Below, piece after piece: positions 1-5,483 of a DNA stretch of 5,483 nt. The position numbers were made by a program, and so were the translations under genes. Origin of the DNA: a virus; IMG/VR virus record IMGVR_UViG_3300045988_016400, positions 1 to 5,483 of that record. One strand, written 5' to 3'. The notes under the pieces were generated by a model. It did no database searches. It saw only the letters and a list, made by a program, of their open reading frames with translations, and was not told the DNA's origin. Each line of letters starts with the position of its first letter. Within the stretch, counting starts at the first letter, position 1.

Positions 1-55
1 AAAATAACATAAAGTGATGTATATTTCAAGAAAACAATTGACATACATCAAATAA
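1..55. repeat. Terminal direct repeat. It is identical to 5429-5483 and marks the assembly overlap of a circular genome with a 5428-nt unit.
   Basis: Read directly: aaaataacataaagtgatgtatatttcaagaaaacaattgacatacatcaaataa occurs at both ends of the window, 55/55 identical. Confidence 0.95.
30..51 (+). repeat. Copy 1 of the 22-nt element gaaaaYaattgacatacatcaa. It contains TTGACA at 38-43 and is a candidate regulator-binding site or partial promoter.
   Basis: It matches 3994-4015 at 21/22 positions, with a 16-nt exact core (aattgacatacatcaa, 36-51 = 4000-4015). atacatca (43-50) is the reverse complement of tgatgtat (15-22). No good -10 hexamer lies 16-18 nt downstream; the best candidate is atgaat at 62-67. 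Confidence 0.6.
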
Positions 56-126
56 TGGATGATGAATGGACAGATGCAATCTGCGAAGCACTAAAAAAAT
101 ACGAACAACAATAAGAATACCACAAA

Positions 127-158: not shown

Positions 159-390
159 ATTTTTAGTAAAATTGACAAAAAAGGAGGCGATCATATGGAC
201 AACCGCTTTTAATCCGAACCGAAAAGAAATCATCCGAGTATACGTAGGAGTCGTGGAAATATGGGCGATCGAAGAACTGGCACAGGAGTACTTTGTAACA
301 CAGGGACGAGTCATCCGGGACGCTATCAAAGTTGCTCTGAAGCACAAAGAAGAGCTATACGAGCTGTTAAAGATGGATACCGAGATTTAA
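148..390 (+). CDS. Hypothetical small protein with ribbon-helix-helix-like sequence features. The true start is unresolved.
   Basis: This is a tracked ORF. Residues KEIIRVYVGVVEIWAIEELAQEYFVTQGRVIRDAIKVALKH read as a beta-strand, helix, G-x turn and helix, as in CopG/Arc/MetJ proteins. Its third-position T usage resembles VP1 by my hand count. The tracked GTG start at 148 lies inside the terminator T-tract, so it is unlikely to be real. The strong AGGAGG at 182-187 serves an out-of-frame ATG at 195 (see finding). Confidence 0.5.
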   Translation: MFFLFLVKLTKKEAIIWTTAFNPNRKEIIRVYVGVVEIWAIEELAQEYFVTQGRVIRDAIKVALKHKEELYELLKMDTEI

Positions 391-497
391 AAAAGGCCAG
401 GACACTTGGAGAAGCCGAAGCAATCGTCCGTGAGATCTACGAAGCCAAAGCAATCATCACAGAGGAGGAGCTAAAATGGCTAAAAGAGTCAAAATGA
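261..497 (+). CDS. Hypothetical protein or overlapping frame. Only the part from about 387 to 497 looks convincingly coding.
   Basis: This is a tracked ORF. ATG 261 has AGGAG (246-250) 10 nt upstream. The N-terminal 42 codons overlap 148-390 and have atypically many T-ending codons. The C-terminal part (LKKARTLGEAEAIVREIYEAKAIITEEELKWLKESK) is helix-like with typical codon usage but has no ATG/GTG/TTG of its own. Confidence 0.35.
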   Translation: MGDRRTGTGVLCNTGTSHPGRYQSCSEAQRRAIRAVKDGYRDLKKARTLGEAEAIVREIYEAKAIITEEELKWLKESK

Positions 498-595
498 AGC
501 CCAGGAAAGACCAGAAAGTCTTTTCCAACACCGCAAAGAAAACCAAATCCATCAACATCACGCCAAAAATCATGCGTGGTGGTACGAGACTGTAA
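476..595 (+). CDS. Small basic DNA-binding/packaging peptide (gokushovirus ORF8/VP8-like, functional analogue of phiX174 J)
   Basis: Hand translation gives MAKRVKMKPRKDQKVFSNTAKKTKSINITPKIMRGGTRL, 39 aa and very K/R rich. The C-terminal MRGGxRL motif is one I recall from gokushovirus small basic proteins. GAGGAGGAG (461-469) lies 6 nt upstream of the ATG. The ORF is below the length cut-off of the ORF track. Confidence 0.75.
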   Translation: MAKRVKMKPRKDQKVFSNTAKKTKSINITPKIMRGGTRL

Positions 596-608
596 AGGAG
601 AAAACATC

Positions 609-887
609 ATGATTCTGGAATACTATGCCATCAAAGACACCAAGGTCGCCTTTATGAATCCGTTTCTGCAGCACAACAAGGCCGAGGCCATCCGATCTTT
701 CCGCAGCGTCCTGGTAGATGAACGCAGCGAAGCAGCCAAGAACCCGGCAGACTATGAACTCTGGTACGTCGGACAGTGGGACGACGCAACGGGCATCATG
801 ATGGGCGGACAGCCGCAGTTTATCGAAAACGGAGTGAAGGGGTTAAAAAATGCCGAAAACCGAAGTGCACATCTGGAGTCGATTTGA
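609..887 (+). CDS. VP5: VP5-like non-structural protein of Gokushovirinae
   Basis: The sequence MILEYYAIKDTKVAFMNPFLQHNKAEAIRSFRSVLVD...NPADYELWYVGQWDDATG fits the conserved VP5 pattern (AxxDxK...F..PF....AiR.F.....p.DyeL..vG.fDd.tG). AAGGAG (595-600) lies 8 nt before ATG 609. The tracked GTG start at 576 overlaps the upstream gene and has no SD. Confidence 0.85.
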   Translation: MILEYYAIKDTKVAFMNPFLQHNKAEAIRSFRSVLVDERSEAAKNPADYELWYVGQWDDATGIMMGGQPQFIENGVKGLKNAENRSAHLESI

Positions 888-1356
888 TCGACCCGACACG
901 ATCGCAGCACCTGAAGGTACCAGCACAGAGCCGAAATACATGGAAGCGATCGACGAAAACGGACACAGAACACTGGAACAGACCGGAGAAACCGACACTT
1001 ACGCCATGATCCAAGCAAGTCTCGAAGAAACCAAAATCGAAAACATCATCCGAAGAGCCACGCTGGGCGATCCGACCGCACTCACGCAAACCATGGGCGC
1101 ATACGTGGACACGACCGACATGCCAACAAGTCTGGCCGAAATGCAGAACGCCATTATCACGATCGAAAACGAGTTCAACAAACTGCCTCTCGAAACACGC
1201 TTAAAATTTAACCAAAGTCCGGAAAAATATATCTCTATGTACGGCACAGAAGAATGGGCCAAAATCATGGGATATGAAAAAATTCAGCAGAATGCACAAA
1301 AAACAACGACGAATTCGCACGACGAGGATCTGCAGAAAGGAGAAAATAAAGAATGA
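850..1356 (+). CDS. VP3: Internal scaffolding protein VP3
   Basis: The ORF is 168 aa. Its C-terminal half (SLAEMQNAIITIENEFNKLPLETRLKFNQSPEKYISMY) matches the conserved gokushovirus VP3 motif (F..LP.e.R..Fn.sPe.f). It sits immediately upstream of VP1, with its stop overlapping the VP1 start (ATGA at 1353-1356). Confidence 0.85.
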   Translation: MPKTEVHIWSRFDRPDTIAAPEGTSTEPKYMEAIDENGHRTLEQTGETDTYAMIQASLEETKIENIIRRATLGDPTALTQTMGAYVDTTDMPTSLAEMQNAIITIENEFNKLPLETRLKFNQSPEKYISMYGTEEWAKIMGYEKIQQNAQKTTTNSHDEDLQKGENKE

Positions 1357-3107
1357 ACCGCAATTCCGAAAGCCATTTCGCACAGATTCCGCATGCAGAC
1401 ATCAGCCGATCAAAGTTCTATCGGAACTCAGACCACAAAACAACATTCAACGCCGGACAGCTCATCCCAATCTACTGTGATGAAGTCTTACCGGGAGACA
1501 CTCACCAGATGGACATGAGCGCACTGATCCGCATGAGCACACCGATCTTTCCGACCATGGACAATCTGTTCTGTGATTTTTACTTCTTCTTCGTGCCAAA
1601 CCGTCTGGTGTGGAACCACTGGAAAGAATTCATGGGCGAAAACACAGAAAGTTACTGGACGCAACCGACAGAATACCAAGTACCAATCATTGACACAGAA
1701 ACAGATAAAAACAAAAACGAAAACTTAAAAGGAACCCAAACAGGCACCACACTCGACTACTTCGGTATACCGACAGGGATAGACGGACTAAAAATCAACG
1801 CACTACCTCAACGAGCATACCAGCTCATCTGGAACGAGTGGTTTAGAGACCAAAATATACAGCAGCCCTGCGAAATACCACTTGACGAAACAACCGTAAA
1901 GCTAAAAAGCACCGAATATGAAAAACACAACTCAAAAGAAGCATACGATTATTTTAAAAAAAATTACGTAACAAAAGCAAAAGAGGGTTATGCACCTCTT
2001 CCGGTCAACAAGTACCACGACTACTTCACGTCCTGTCTGCCGCAGCCACAGAAAGGCACAGCCGTACTGCTGCCGATAAGCGGAAACGCACCAATCAGGT
2101 CATACATCGACGAAAATATGACACAGCAAGCAGTCGCAATCGGAAAATCACCTAATTACTACTCACCATGGACATGGGGAGGCACAGAAGCAGAGCTAAC
2201 ACAGACCTACGACCTTAAAGAACCGCCTAATTTCTTCCAGAGCAGAATGCTGGGAAAAGCCAAAGAGGGCTACGAATTCGTAACACAAGAAAACAAAAAC
2301 CCAACTAAAACAGCTTATATCGGCGCAGACCTGAGCGCAGTCACAGGCGCAACAATCAACCAGCTCCGTCAAGCATTCCAGATTCAAAAACTTTTGGAAC
2401 GGGATGCACGAGGCGGAACCAGATACACCGAAATTCTGAAAGCACACTTCAACGTAACATCTCCAGATTCTCGCCAGCAACGACCGGAATACCTAGGCGG
2501 ATACCGAATGCCGATCAACATCACGCAGGTGGTGCAGAACAGTGAAACCACGGCAACCAGTCCGCAGGGCAACACCGCAGCATTTTCAGTCAGCGGCATG
2601 AATAAGAGCATGTTCACAAAGAGCTTTACCGAGCACGGATACATCATCGGACTGGCAGCGGTCAGAACCGAACACACGTATCAACAGGGCATTGAGCGCA
2701 TGTGGAGCCGTAAAGGCCGCTATGACTTCTACTGGCCGGAACTTGCGAACATCGGAGAACAGGCAGTCCTAAACAAGGAAATCTATGCACAGGGCACGGA
2801 CGCAGATGAAGAGGCATTCGGCTACCAAGAGGCATGGGCCGATTATCGGTACAAGCCGAGCCGAGTGTCTGGCGATATGCGTTCAAACTATAAACAAACG
2901 CTGGACAGCTGGCACTATGCCGACTACTACGCCGAACAGCCGAAACTGTCAAGTCAATGGATGATGGAGACCATGAACAACATCGACCGCACGCTTGCAG
3001 TACAGTCGAGCGTAGAAGACCAGTTTATCGCAGACTTCTATTTCAAAGCACAGACCACGAGACCGATGCCTGTTTACAGTGTGCCGGGCCTTATCGACCA
3101 TCACTAA
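1353..3107 (+). CDS. VP1: Major capsid protein VP1 (phiX174 F-protein family)
   Basis: The ORF is 584 aa. The N-terminus SHFAQIPHADISRSKFYRNSDHKTTFNAGQLIPIYCDEVLPGDT, and the segments INQLRQAFQIQKLLERDARGGTRYTEILKAHF and RPEYLGG, are hallmark Microviridae capsid sequences. AAGGAG lies at 1337-1342. Confidence 0.97.
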   Translation: MNRNSESHFAQIPHADISRSKFYRNSDHKTTFNAGQLIPIYCDEVLPGDTHQMDMSALIRMSTPIFPTMDNLFCDFYFFFVPNRLVWNHWKEFMGENTESYWTQPTEYQVPIIDTETDKNKNENLKGTQTGTTLDYFGIPTGIDGLKINALPQRAYQLIWNEWFRDQNIQQPCEIPLDETTVKLKSTEYEKHNSKEAYDYFKKNYVTKAKEGYAPLPVNKYHDYFTSCLPQPQKGTAVLLPISGNAPIRSYIDENMTQQAVAIGKSPNYYSPWTWGGTEAELTQTYDLKEPPNFFQSRMLGKAKEGYEFVTQENKNPTKTAYIGADLSAVTGATINQLRQAFQIQKLLERDARGGTRYTEILKAHFNVTSPDSRQQRPEYLGGYRMPINITQVVQNSETTATSPQGNTAAFSVSGMNKSMFTKSFTEHGYIIGLAAVRTEHTYQQGIERMWSRKGRYDFYWPELANIGEQAVLNKEIYAQGTDADEEAFGYQEAWADYRYKPSRVSGDMRSNYKQTLDSWHYADYYAEQPKLSSQWMMETMNNIDRTLAVQSSVEDQFIADFYFKAQTTRPMPVYSVPGLIDHH

Positions 3108-3167: not shown

Positions 3168-4001
3168 ATGGGACTCTTAGGAAAAATCGCCGGAGCGGTG
3201 ATTCCAAGCGTTGTAAACTGGGGATTAGGGCAAATCTTCGGAGGAGGAGCCAACAGCACAACCCAAGGAGCCAGTCAAAGCCAAGGCGGAAGCACCACGG
3301 AAAGCCAGAGCGGAACAAACGACCAGTTTAACGCAGAGCAAGCACAGCTCAACCGGGACTATCAGACCATGAGCCAGGCGATCCAGGGCAACTACAACAT
3401 GAAAAGCATGCTCATGAGTATGGGCTACAACACCATGGGCGCCATCATGCAGGGCGTGTACAACGGAATCAGCCAAAAAGCAGCCATGAACTACAACAGC
3501 GCTGAGGCAGCAGCAAACAGAGCTTGGCAGACCGAAATGAGCAACACAGCCTATCAGAGAGCTGTACAGGACTTGAAAGCAGCAGGCCTTAACCCGATCT
3601 TAGCAGCACTCCACGGGGGAGCCGTCACAGGCTCAGGAGCATACGGCAGCTCAGGAGCCAGCACGATCGGAGCACCGAGCGCCAGTGCAGCAAGCATCTC
3701 AGCCATGCCAGGCACGTCAACACCATCAAGCCAATGGAGCTGGTCAAAGGGCGAAAGCTGGAACCAGAGCACAGCCTATAACATGGGCGAATCCATTATG
3801 CGATACTACGCAGACCCGAACACCAGCGCAAAGAACCTCAAAGAGACAGGAGACAAAGTTGTAAAAGCCGGCAAAGAGGCAGGCGAGCAGATCCAAAAAG
3901 CACTCGAACCAGCCAGAAAGTGGACAGACAACATTGGACTCACTGCACCAGAGGGAGGAGCAAAAGCAGCCTGGGAGAGCAGGCAGAAACATAGAAAATA
4001 A
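3168..4001 (+). CDS. VP2: DNA pilot / minor capsid protein VP2 (phiX174 H analogue)
   Basis: The ORF is 277 aa. It has a hydrophobic Gly-rich N-terminus, a Q/S/N-rich region, and the motif WQTEMSNTAYQRAVQDLKAAGLNPILA that is characteristic of gokushovirus VP2. AGGAGG (3154-3159) lies 8 nt before the ATG. Confidence 0.9.
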   Translation: MGLLGKIAGAVIPSVVNWGLGQIFGGGANSTTQGASQSQGGSTTESQSGTNDQFNAEQAQLNRDYQTMSQAIQGNYNMKSMLMSMGYNTMGAIMQGVYNGISQKAAMNYNSAEAAANRAWQTEMSNTAYQRAVQDLKAAGLNPILAALHGGAVTGSGAYGSSGASTIGAPSASAASISAMPGTSTPSSQWSWSKGESWNQSTAYNMGESIMRYYADPNTSAKNLKETGDKVVKAGKEAGEQIQKALEPARKWTDNIGLTAPEGGAKAAWESRQKHRK

Positions 4002-4015
4002 TTGACATACATCAA
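3994..4015 (+). repeat. Copy 2 of the 22-nt element gaaaaYaattgacatacatcaa. It overlaps the VP2 stop codon and supplies the -35 box of the promoter.
   Basis: It matches 30-51 at 21/22 positions, with an exact 16-nt core at 4000-4015. Confidence 0.85.
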
Positions 4016-4030
4016 GAACAGGTGTATAAT
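4002..4030 (+). promoter_or_regulatory. Consensus sigma70/sigmaA-type promoter for the RHH ORF, and probably for VP4 as well
   Basis: TTGACA (4002-4007), an exactly 17-nt spacer, then TATAAT (4025-4030). This is followed by AGGAGG (4038-4043) and ATG 4052. I found no other full consensus promoter in the genome. Confidence 0.8.
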
Positions 4031-4051
4031 CACTCTTAGGAGGTGTATGTT

Positions 4052-4219
4052 ATGAAATGCACAGTCAGAAGAATCAACGTGAATCTCACAGAGAAAGAAA
4101 ACAAAGCACTCAAACAGACGGCAAAAGCCATGGGAGAAAAGGAAAGTGAGATCGTACGCAAAGCAATCATGAGTTTTACCAGTTCTGTTAAAGATTTACA
4201 GGGAAATATTGGTCAGTAA
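4052..4219 (+). CDS. Ribbon-helix-helix (CopG/Arc/MetJ-like) DNA-binding protein, 55 aa
   Basis: Hand translation gives MKCTVRRINVNLTEKENKALKQTAKAMGEKESEIVRKAIMSFTSSVKDLQGNIGQ. It reads as a beta-strand (RRINVNL), helix A (TEKENKALKQTAKAMG) and helix B (SEIVRKAIMSF), the classic RHH layout. It has a perfect SD 8 nt upstream and a consensus promoter. It is absent from the ORF track because it is under 60 aa. Confidence 0.75.
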   Translation: MKCTVRRINVNLTEKENKALKQTAKAMGEKESEIVRKAIMSFTSSVKDLQGNIGQ

Positions 4220-4245
4220 ATAGGAACCGTTAGCGGCATCGCTGT

Positions 4246-4287
4246 CACCTAGCCCCCTTACATCAAGTAAGGCTCGGGGGCTAGGTG
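4246..4287 (+). promoter_or_regulatory. Stable GC-rich stem-loop between the RHH ORF and VP4, with no U-tract. It is a candidate regulatory or origin-type structure.
   Basis: cacctagccccc (4246-4257) pairs perfectly with gggggctaggtg (4276-4287), 12 bp. An inner 4-bp stem joins ttac (4258-4261) to gtaa (4267-4270), with loop atcaa. The sequence downstream is ccagggggaggagg rather than a T run. Confidence 0.6.
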
Positions 4288-4300
4288 CCAGGGGGAGGAG

Positions 4301-5341
4301 GTGAAGACCGATTTGGGCTGCAAATTTCCAATTGTGCAAGACACAATGACAGGCAGATTTTTGAAAGAATACGAAGGACATCTATACTACAAGTGGAACG
4401 ATTTCAATGGAACATCGCCAAAAGCAATCATCACTGACGCACGTTACCGACTCATTCCGTGCGGTAGGTGTACCGAGTGCCGATTAGCATACTCGAGAGA
4501 GTGGGCAAACCGATGCGTTCTCGAGTCGCTCATGTACAAGTCAAACTGGTTCGTAACACTGACCTACAACCCTGAACAGATTCCAACACTAAGGCTTGAC
4601 ACAGGAGAACTGTACAGAGGAGGTGTACAAGAAGTTCAAAATGGCAAAGTGCTGGTGTCTAACACGCTGTTCCATGACGACGTGCAGAAATTCCTCAAAA
4701 GACTGAGATTCCACCTTGCAAAAGCTAGAGAACCAGAAATCCGATACTACATGTGTGGAGAGTATGGCAGCACGACACAACGACCACACTACCACATGAT
4801 CATCTACAATCTGAGCGTGCCGGATCTCGAATTCTACAAGCTCAACGAACTACATCAACCATACTTCCAAAGCAAATGGCTTGAGGACATCTGGGGACAC
4901 GGATTCATAACACTCGGAGAGGTAAACTGGAACACATGTGCTTACGTGGCAAGATACATCATGAAAAAAGTGAAAGGAGATAAAGCAGAAGAATTTTATA
5001 AAAGCATCGGAAAAACACCAGAATATACAAGAATGAGTTTAAAACCAGGAATAGGAGAAAAATACTATGAACTGAATAAAGAACAGATCTATAAATTTGA
5101 TCAAATTATTATCCCAGGAAAACAAGCAAAAAAAGTACAACCGTCAAAATATTTCGACAAGCTGTATGATATAGAAAATCCAGAAAGGATGCAGGAAATC
5201 AAAAAAGCACGTGAAAAAAATGCACGCCTTGCTCAGCAGCTCAAGTTAAGCAAAACCACAAAGGAACTGTGGGAACAGCTTAAAATAGAGCACGAAGCCA
5301 AACAAGACGCTTACAAAAAACTGATAAGACCGCTAGAATAG
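4301..5341 (+). CDS. VP4: Replication initiation protein VP4 (HUH rolling-circle endonuclease, phiX174 A-protein family)
   Basis: The ORF contains a Cys cluster (PCGRCTECR), RCR motif I (FVTLTY, nt 4550-4567), the HUH motif (PHYHMII, with HYH at nt 4787-4795), and a double-tyrosine motif (YVARYIMKK, tyrosines at nt 4943-4945 and 4955-4957) like phiX174 A. The start is uncertain among GTG 4301 (abuts the SD), TTG 4313 and ATG 4346. Confidence 0.95.
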   Translation: MKTDLGCKFPIVQDTMTGRFLKEYEGHLYYKWNDFNGTSPKAIITDARYRLIPCGRCTECRLAYSREWANRCVLESLMYKSNWFVTLTYNPEQIPTLRLDTGELYRGGVQEVQNGKVLVSNTLFHDDVQKFLKRLRFHLAKAREPEIRYYMCGEYGSTTQRPHYHMIIYNLSVPDLEFYKLNELHQPYFQSKWLEDIWGHGFITLGEVNWNTCAYVARYIMKKVKGDKAEEFYKSIGKTPEYTRMSLKPGIGEKYYELNKEQIYKFDQIIIPGKQAKKVQPSKYFDKLYDIENPERMQEIKKAREKNARLAQQLKLSKTTKELWEQLKIEHEAKQDAYKKLIRPLE

Positions 5342-5348
5342 CTGAATA

Positions 5349-5393
5349 AGGGCGCAACACGGAATCTGACCTCCACGTTGCGCCCTGCTTTTC
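5349..5393 (+). terminator. Probable Rho-independent terminator after VP4
   Basis: agggcgcaac (5349-5358) pairs with gttgcgccct (5377-5386), 10 bp, around an 18-nt loop, followed by gc and tttt (5389-5392). The short T tract and large loop lower confidence. Confidence 0.45.
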
Positions 5394-5428: not shown

Positions 5429-5483
5429 AAAATAACATAAAGTGATGTATATTTCAAGAAAACAATTGACATACATCAAATAA
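5429..5483. repeat. Terminal direct repeat, the second copy of 1-55 (circular-genome overlap)
   Basis: It is 55/55 identical to 1-55. The TTGACA element at 5466-5471 is therefore the same physical site as 38-43. Confidence 0.95.

Follow-up and report, generated by a model that had tools for sequence, protein, structure and literature searches.

A predicted ribbon-helix-helix gene between a consensus promoter and the replication initiator gene in a lineage of gokushoviruses

The Arc and Mnt proteins of phage P22 are ribbon-helix-helix (RHH) repressors in which polar residues of a beta-ribbon read the operator half-sites, and they bind as dimers of dimers over the promoter core. Omega of plasmid pSM19035, also an RHH protein, recognizes 7-bp heptads (WATCACW) that are repeated in direct or inverted orientation at several promoters, one of which controls copy number, and the CopG-like protein ORF56 of the Sulfolobus plasmid pRN1 is encoded upstream of a replication gene and binds its own promoter. 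In pMV158, translation of rep is inhibited by an antisense RNA. The CopG-RepB copy-control operon of that plasmid works by RHH autorepression of the shared promoter (PMC2724298). Here we describe a comparable arrangement in front of VP4, the rolling-circle replication initiator gene of the virus in IMG/VR record IMGVR_UViG_3300045988_016400. The stretch analysed (5,483 nt, hereafter the window) is the whole circular genome of a gokushovirus, a small single-stranded DNA phage of the gut, with a unit length of 5,428 nt, positions 1-55 duplicating 5429-5483 as a circular redundancy of 55 nt. In it a consensus promoter, P1, is followed by a 55-aa open reading frame (ORF) for a predicted RHH protein and then by VP4. 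We propose that the two genes form an operon and that a dimer of the 55-aa protein represses P1, which we regard as a reasonably probable, although not a secure, reading. The elements of this region are as follows.

4002-4030, plus strand: promoter P1, with -35 TTGACA at 4002-4007, a 17-nt spacer and -10 TATAAT at 4025-4030
4007-4013, minus strand: candidate operator half-site 1 (ATACATC on the plus strand, GATGTAT on the minus strand), overlapping the end of the -35 hexamer
4021-4027, plus strand: candidate operator half-site 2 (GGTGTAT), overlapping the -10 hexamer
4042-4048, plus strand: candidate operator half-site 3 (GGTGTAT), overlapping the Shine-Dalgarno (SD) region of the 5' untranslated region
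4052-4219, plus strand: gene of the 55-aa predicted RHH protein, with the SD sequence AGGAGG at 4038-4043
4242-4291, no strand assigned: DNA hairpin with arms 4242-4257 and 4276-4291, 5' flank TGTCA and loop core ACATCAAG at 4260-4267
4301 or 4313 to 5341, plus strand: VP4, HUH rolling-circle replication initiator (PF23343, phrog_942)
5349-5392, plus strand: terminator-like hairpin 3' of VP4, with arms 5349-5363 and 5372-5386 followed by GCTTTTC

The locus resembles that of pMV158 in that a small RHH gene stands directly upstream of a HUH initiator gene, one strong promoter is apparently shared by the two, a pseudo-symmetric element overlaps this promoter, CopG is the best structural match of the small protein, and negative feedback would be expected. 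A CopG/RepB-style architecture had been proposed in a preliminary description of this DNA; the gene order, the single promoter and the operator-like repeats are in keeping with it, but the initiator is a VP4 of family PF23343 and not a RepB of the pMV158 type, and the 55-aa protein falls under the RHH_1 threshold. The window also differs from pMV158 in that the origin-like hairpin lies between the two genes instead of upstream of the promoter, the half-sites occupy the spacer, the -10 hexamer and the 5' untranslated region instead of being centred on the -35 hexamer, and the replicon is a packaged virus. As regards an antisense-RNA arm, there is no minus-strand promoter- or terminator-like site in 4219-4400, and Rfam gave no match to the hairpin or to anything else in the window. 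Because of the gene order, the fold, the conserved promoter and the operator-like repeats, we consider that the analogy with CopG and RepB describes the probable working of the cassette well. ORF56, which is annotated as a plasmid copy-control protein, is likewise a small RHH protein encoded upstream of a replication gene, but it belongs to an archaeal plasmid with a primase-polymerase in place of a HUH nuclease and shows no sequence kinship beyond the fold. Arc and Mnt are, like the 55-aa protein, phage-encoded and have alternating polar ribbon residues, whereas they control an antirepressor in a large temperate double-stranded DNA phage and are not tied to a replication initiator. Omega is comparable as an RHH regulator with heptad arrays at several promoters; however, its heptads are contiguous and of a different sequence, whereas the heptamers of the window are 7-15 nt apart.

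Judged by its conservation, the 55-aa ORF is a real gene under purifying selection. It has the strong SD and the ATG start previously ascribed to it, AGGAGG being separated by 8 nt from ATG 4052. A tblastn search of GenBank phages returned five weak matches, four of them in Microviridae, where intact but unannotated ORFs of 54-70 aa starting with MKSQ(V/I)xxR(I/F/V)N(V/I)NLT lie between VP2 and VP4; in each of the six GenBank records in which the gene was found, it has no annotation. Human-gut contigs, which measure 3.5-5.7 kb and in most cases 5.3-5.7 kb, provided four closer homologues (63-91% identity), and additional family loci were drawn from IMG/VR. The family comprises at least 241 protein clusters in a profile search, with the largest contig among the 120 clusters listed measuring 5,851 nt and thus being of microvirus size, and 67 representatives at 50% identity were collected in an exhaustive hidden Markov model (HMM) search. 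When the conservation of the small ORF was checked by these tblastn and HMM searches, as the preliminary description had suggested, a homologue was present in the VP2-VP4 gap of every relative found, with the order VP2, RHH gene, VP4 at every homologue locus examined. The ratio of non-synonymous to synonymous substitution rates (dN/dS) is 0.13-0.30 in most pairs with close relatives and 0.3-0.6 against the most divergent relative, consistent with purifying selection; 25 diverse members show no variation at M1, R7, N9, N11, L12, T13, S32, R36, A38 and I39.

The protein is predicted to have an RHH fold of the DNA-binding type. In an AlphaFold2 (AF2) model made with the family alignment (predicted local distance difference test score, 80.7), residues 1-13 are extended and helices span residues 14-27 and 31-50; as the RHH ribbon forms only in the dimer, an extended N terminus is expected in a monomer model. 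RHH proteins dominate the best 50 Foldseek matches listed from the PDB. CopG leads (1ea4, 2cpg and 1b01; probability 0.98, template modelling score 0.81 on the target, root mean square deviation 1.3 Å), followed by CopA(SO), PutA, ORF56 (2k9i, 3ft7), Arc (1par) and RHH antitoxins, so that the RHH layout once read from the letters alone has found its counterpart in a structural model. Among the BFVD matches are many RHH, Arc-type and CopG-like proteins of phages as well as annotated repressors. At the sequence level, the protein has mutually consistent matches below threshold to DUF6290, NikA-like (E 0.005), RHH_1, RHH_3, phrog_4113 and Arc-like PHROGs, and it matches phrog_876, a 'transcriptional repressor', at 1e-4. 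RHH_1 is matched at E <= 0.1 by 6 of 25 family members (best 6.4e-6), a precomputed PF01402 match exists for P0004, and one member bears the label 'Arc/MetJ-type ribon-helix-helix transcriptional regulator' from JGI automatic annotation. As modelled, the protein has the beta-alpha-alpha domain of about 45 residues, the alternating N-terminal strand and the S/T/N at the start of helix B that characterize RHH proteins, the last of these being S32, invariant in the 25 members. The invariant polar residues R7, N9 and N11 alternate with the hydrophobic I8, V10 and L12, the pattern expected of a DNA-reading ribbon. We infer that the protein binds repeated half-sites as a homodimer.

P1 begins at the first base past the VP2 stop codon, exactly where a TTGACA-17-TATAAT promoter had been noted before, and it is the sole 12/12 sigma-70 match that the promoter scan found in the window. 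There are nine looser matches in the window against 6.0 +/- 2.5 in shuffles, so that only the perfect P1 is remarkable; on the coding strand no other promoter scores above 10/12. Transcription from P1 would be expected to start near 4036-4038. A TTGAC(A/G)-17-TATA(A/T)T element directly 3' of the VP2 stop is kept in about 30 distinct relatives. The terminator scan found no terminator-like site between the stop of the 55-aa ORF (4219) and VP4 (4301), in agreement with the earlier claim that no intrinsic terminator separates them. In the relative L003 (MG945373, 3769-3954), an extra 61-aa ORF lies between the conserved promoter and the RHH gene, the start of which it overlaps; the promoter-proximal slot therefore tolerates insertions.

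Superimposed on P1 are copies of the heptamer GRTGTAT, which has 11 matches (9 unique copies) in the window against 0.93 expected, a number reached in none of 200 shuffles. Five of the nine unique copies fall in two promoter regions, and three lie within 42 nt at P1, at the -35 edge, the -10 hexamer and the SD region. Half-sites 1 and 2, spaced by 7 nt, form a 6/7 palindrome, ATACATC-N7-G(G/A)TGTAT, that spans the P1 spacer and the -10 hexamer and is perfect in L013, in L016 and in a second promoter, P2. G(G/A)TGTA at the position of half-site 2 is kept across all subfamilies, and TAGGAGGTGTAT at half-site 3 is invariant in six aligned close relatives. In distant subfamilies the promoter is equally conserved, with G(G/A)TGTA in the -10 hexamer and just 3' of it, often as GGTGTA-N7-TACACC.

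The second promoter accounts for the repeats that had been pointed out at 1-60. The repeat is present, as a 23-nt copy of 3993-4015 with 22 of 23 positions identical, and alignment with relatives explains 16-49, where a perfect inverted GRTGTAT pair occupies 16-22 and 43-49, as the stump of a promoter that is intact in those relatives. Three features belong to this region.

16-49, plus strand: stump of promoter P2, identical to 5444-5477, with GATGTAT at 16-22, -35 TTGACA at 38-43 and ATACATC at 43-49
55-114, plus strand: remnant of the P2 accessory ORF, its last 19 codons and stop, from alignment with L005 and L013
124-165, plus strand: strong terminator 3' of the ORF remnant, from the terminator scan

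In the window the -10 hexamer, the SD and about two thirds of the small ORF of P2 are gone, a deletion of some 135 nt. Where it is intact (L005-L009, L018 and L013), P2 reads TTGACATACATCAAATCTAGATGTATAAT; next come an SD and an ORF of 53 or 48 aa for which no family match was found. It is a 12/12 promoter, TTGAC-ATACATC-N7-GATGTAT-AAT, with a perfect palindrome and with its own SD, ORF and terminator (L005 2296-2512; L013 4242-4442), and these relatives therefore have two consensus promoters with the same palindrome in their spacers. The cassette is absent from L010-L012, L016 and L017; on this distribution, it is a moron-like element that is variably present among close relatives.

With P1 at consensus and repeats over its core and start site, autorepression by occlusion is the most economical mechanism. 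RNA polymerase would start at P1, which would need no activator, transcribe the RHH gene, pass the hairpin that lacks a T-run, continue through VP4 and stop near 5349-5392. Two RHH dimers would insert their beta-ribbons, with R7, N9 and N11 exposed, into the GRTGTAT half-sites, and as these coincide in part with the spacer between the -35 and -10 hexamers, with the -10 hexamer itself and with the earliest bases of the transcript, the promoter would be occluded. Such negative feedback would keep both the RHH protein and Rep low and buffered, the Rep nuclease being likely harmful in excess. P2 of the relatives, and with it the small accessory ORF, would be shut off by this protein as well.

Several observations weigh against this proposal. 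The Foldseek E-values, from both the PDB and BFVD, exceed 0.01, owing to the very small size of the domain; a sequence search of the PDB with the family profile gave no significant match; and the 55-aa protein scores under the Pfam gathering thresholds (14.7 vs 20.5 bits for RHH_1, 13.6 vs 21.6 for RHH_3 and 21.7 vs 27 for DUF6290). Half-site density over 30 distinct loci is 2.56 per 100 nt from the -35 hexamer to the ATG vs 0.138 elsewhere, but as the loci compared are related, the enrichment is a sign of conservation rather than of independent recurrence. The -35 and -10 consensus in part dictates the outer bases of the palindrome, and the stable hairpin between the RHH gene and VP4 could reduce read-through. 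Moreover, an acidic run with an LPF C terminus (EEEDLPF, DDDDDLPF) ends the protein in 7 of 42 representatives at 50% identity and in 42 of the 120 clusters listed. The C-terminal tip DDDIPF/DDDLPF of SSB recruits PriA, DnaG and other partners (PMC5872125, PMC5531588), and for Streptococcus mutans an SSB-type tail has been reported to act as a ClpXP degron (PMC5143411). The tail hints that the members carrying it may do something at replication forks or may be targets of proteolysis. Examples of the (D/E)xLPF tail are L001 5204-5416 and proteins P0015, P0123, P0139, P0140, P0146, P0149, P0154 and P0160. The window protein is without it, and the window subfamily shares a GKD(L/S)QGN-type tail instead.

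That VP4 is a HUH Rep, as previously claimed, is confirmed by its sole family matches, to Pfam PF23343 REP_ORF2-G2P (2.5e-21) and phrog_942 (7e-110); it contains the motifs HYH and YVARYIMKK. Its start had been placed 82 nt past the 55-aa ORF. GTG 4301 is a possible start, but TTG 4313 is the likelier one from the sequence comparison: GTG 4301 abuts the SD, TTG 4313 (GTG in one relative) stands 9 nt after GGAGGTG, and the variation that relatives show in codons 4313-4345 falls mainly on third positions. There is no conservation of ATG 4346. The hairpin after VP4 is kept in relatives through compensatory changes; it fell under the T-run rule of the scan.

The hairpin between the RHH gene and VP4 had been counted as part of the control cassette. 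It is indeed present, but it appears to be a separate and more widely conserved element of replication type. Its complementary strand reads ACTTGATGT, and its two strands carry …TTACATCAAGTAAGG… and …CCTTACTTGATGTAAGG…, respectively. The arms are 94% complementary and fold as DNA at -18.1 kcal/mol (z = -4.7); the stem is of the GC type and lacks a T-run. Close relatives share the hairpin without change even where they differ in the end of the RHH gene and in the spacer next to it, and over 13 diverse loci compensatory changes affect 11 of 13 stem pairs, with the loop ACATCAAG and the flank TGTCA fixed. A loose pattern scan of viral contigs gave mostly chance matches, of which only those with a real stem were used; hairpin-bearing loci include L091, L097, L106, L055 and L107. 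The same hairpin occurs in microviruses of 4.1-4.6 kb without the RHH gene, on the strand opposite to the genes, and a homologous hairpin with a 12-bp stem is found in the VP3-ORF8 spacer of Chlamydia phage Chp2 (L167, AJ270057, ~2904-2945), the minus strand of which reads TCACCTAGC…ATCAAGTA…, matching the plus strand of the window. On the coding strand, the Chp2 loop contains ACTTGAT, which forms the core of the viral-strand origin of phiX174, CAACTTG^ATATT (annotated 4306). ACTTGAT is thus read on the coding strand in Chp2 and the small microviruses without the RHH gene, and on the non-coding strand in the window lineage.

The covarying stem, the fixed loop, the homology with Chp2 and the phiX174 origin core make this hairpin a probable replication-origin element, most likely the site nicked by Rep or else a strand-specific origin of another kind. 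In other microvirus clades, conserved hairpins 5' of Rep have been discussed as possible complementary-strand origins (PMC9865509), and we found no paper that maps a gokushovirus origin. If the hairpin is the viral-strand origin, the window lineage might package the antisense strand; the coding strand is 36% A and 17% T, and base composition does not tell which strand is packaged. An intrinsic terminator or attenuator was considered and rejected: the hairpin has no T-run, the region folded as RNA in context is not unusually stable (z = -0.87), and in other microviruses the element lies on the non-coding strand, which places its conserved role at the DNA level. The 8-mer ACATCAAG of the loop recurs inside P1 beside the -35 hexamer (4007-4016), these being its only two exact copies in the genome. 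The recurrence could mean that Rep recognizes the promoter region, but the final base of the P1 copy is not kept in relatives, so it may be due to chance. In L001 (5417-5490) and the pig-gut subfamilies, a second conserved GC hairpin, GCCGGG-GAGA-CCCGGC, follows right after the RHH stop codon, with a T7 run about 25 nt further on; in the window there is just a tiny CCG-TTAG-CGG stem at 4228-4237.

RHH proteins are also known as partners of HUH relaxases (TraY, NikA and MbpA), and the 55-aa protein could be mainly a replication accessory factor that binds near the origin and either helps VP4 to nick or recruits host replication proteins. Its gene adjoins both the origin-like hairpin and the HUH Rep gene, it matches NikA-like (E 0.005) and MbpA models weakly, and 7 of the 42 representatives have the tail resembling the SSB tip, which the window protein itself lacks. 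The position of the half-sites speaks against such a role: they lie on the promoter core, some 195-250 nt from the hairpin, and none flanks it (there is no GRTGTAT within ~195 nt), whereas sites of the NikA/TraY type would adjoin the nick site. The same sites recur at P2, which has no origin-like hairpin, and the same hairpin occurs in small microviruses without the RHH gene, where the origin must therefore work without the protein. We consider a mainly accessory role unlikely. Still less credible, and in our view very improbable, is an RHH-type antitoxin or a toxin-antitoxin remnant. The weak matches to RelB and BrnA models (E 0.002-0.09) and to DUF6290, and the RHH antitoxins among the Foldseek matches, are attributable to the shared RHH fold; the scores are far under the curated cut-offs (18.5 vs 50 bits), and VP4 is the next gene in every genome examined. 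An antitoxin role was rejected because no toxin gene adjoins the ORF at any locus examined.

A further possibility is a repressor of immunity or maintenance. Since the circle has no strong promoter besides P1, occupancy of P1 would silence the whole genome, which could produce a plasmid-like carrier state and exclude phages with the same operator. However, an autorepressor that shares the promoter of Rep cannot alone hold a stable off state, and the phage is without an integrase (a dif-like site was not looked for). No member of the family was found in a scan of 185,579 bacterial and archaeal genomes, nor on any contig above 5.85 kb among the clusters listed. What favours this possibility is that no other coding-strand promoter exceeds 10/12, that read-through from P1 may feed all genes, that Arc and Mnt of P22 are RHH proteins of the immunity region, and that the nearest capsid relatives in bacterial assemblies (50-55% identity) lie inside long contigs of Clostridia metagenome-assembled genomes (MAGs), so that the broad group can be temperate. 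These VP1 relatives (L154-L157, L164; 50-55% identity) belong to full gokushovirus gene sets in MAG contigs of Lachnospiraceae and Oscillospiraceae and in a 317-kb Peptostreptococcaceae contig, and L157 holds two gokushovirus copies 5,173 nt apart. Their placement points to Clostridia as likely hosts and to the existence of temperate relatives. The prophage search by way of VP1 yielded only distant relatives, none with the RHH gene, and the relatives embedded in Clostridia thus lack the very protein in question. An immunity function as such therefore seems improbable to us, and autorepression of P1 remains the reading that we prefer.

The genes of the window all lie on the plus strand, and those preceding P1 are listed here.

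172-497, plus strand: small ORFs
476-595, plus strand: 39-aa basic protein (phrog_10695), taken to be a VP8/J-type DNA-binding protein
609-887, plus strand: VP5
850-1356, plus strand: VP3
1353-3107, plus strand: VP1
3168-4001, plus strand: VP2, with its stop codon at 3999-4001

A megablast search of GenBank phages with the genome found no close relative, the best match having 75% identity over 7%. Among the small ORFs, an SD at 181-187 precedes a conserved 5-codon mini-ORF from ATG195 (GAC AAC CGC TTT TAA; MDNRF), in which the changes seen in L005 and L010 are all synonymous. The +1 frame of the mini-ORF runs on as a 59-codon ORF (211-390) that has no canonical start after the SD, and third-position variation marks this as the true coding frame in 261-330; the frame 261-497, chosen by gene callers as a 78-aa ORF, shows constraint only from about 391 on. 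This layout of 181-497 points to an overlapping gene combined with one of three events: a +1 frameshift at UUU_UAR, near-cognate initiation at 193, or termination-reinitiation, for which L016 has UAGCAUG. A second RHH protein in 211-390, RHH-like by eye (…GRVIRDAI…), was considered and rejected, since an RHH fold was supported neither by hhalign, Pfam or PHROGs nor by a single-sequence AF2 model.

In the full-text literature we found nothing that links Microviridae or gokushoviruses with RHH, CopG, Arc or transcriptional regulators, and no regulator is mentioned in the paper on gokushovirus resurrection (PMC7062461) or in the 81-genome and Bacteroidetes provirus papers; the preliminary description, too, knew of no RHH regulator in gokushoviruses. 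A global survey recorded only methyltransferases and lysis peptidases as recognizable accessory genes, in addition to small proteins of undefined function (PMC9239249). Rolling-circle plasmids and phage RHH repressors offer known examples of the type of circuit proposed here, but a conserved, lineage-wide module of this kind in Microviridae appears undescribed. It is tempting to go further and to imagine a widespread lineage of gut gokushoviruses in which an RHH protein sets Rep dosage from the one strong promoter, some members carry a mimic of the SSB tail that links the protein to replication or proteolysis in the host, genomes of these 'obligately lytic' phages persist as regulated episomes that exclude their relatives, and the antisense strand is packaged from an inverted origin hairpin; taken as a whole, we think this picture unlikely.

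Microviruses are among the most abundant phages of the human gut. Their gene content is usually seen as fixed, comprising genes for capsid, pilot, scaffold, packaging and replication, and gene expression as being set only by the strength of promoters and terminators. A conserved phage transcription factor at Rep would change this picture and, if our reading is true, at least one microvirus lineage regulates Rep dosage. An annotation would also be gained for a gene that has none in the GenBank records examined, and the hairpin offers a testable candidate for the gokushovirus origin. The protein, its putative operator and the promoter together would provide a handle for testing whether low-copy or carrier states exist in Clostridia-type hosts.

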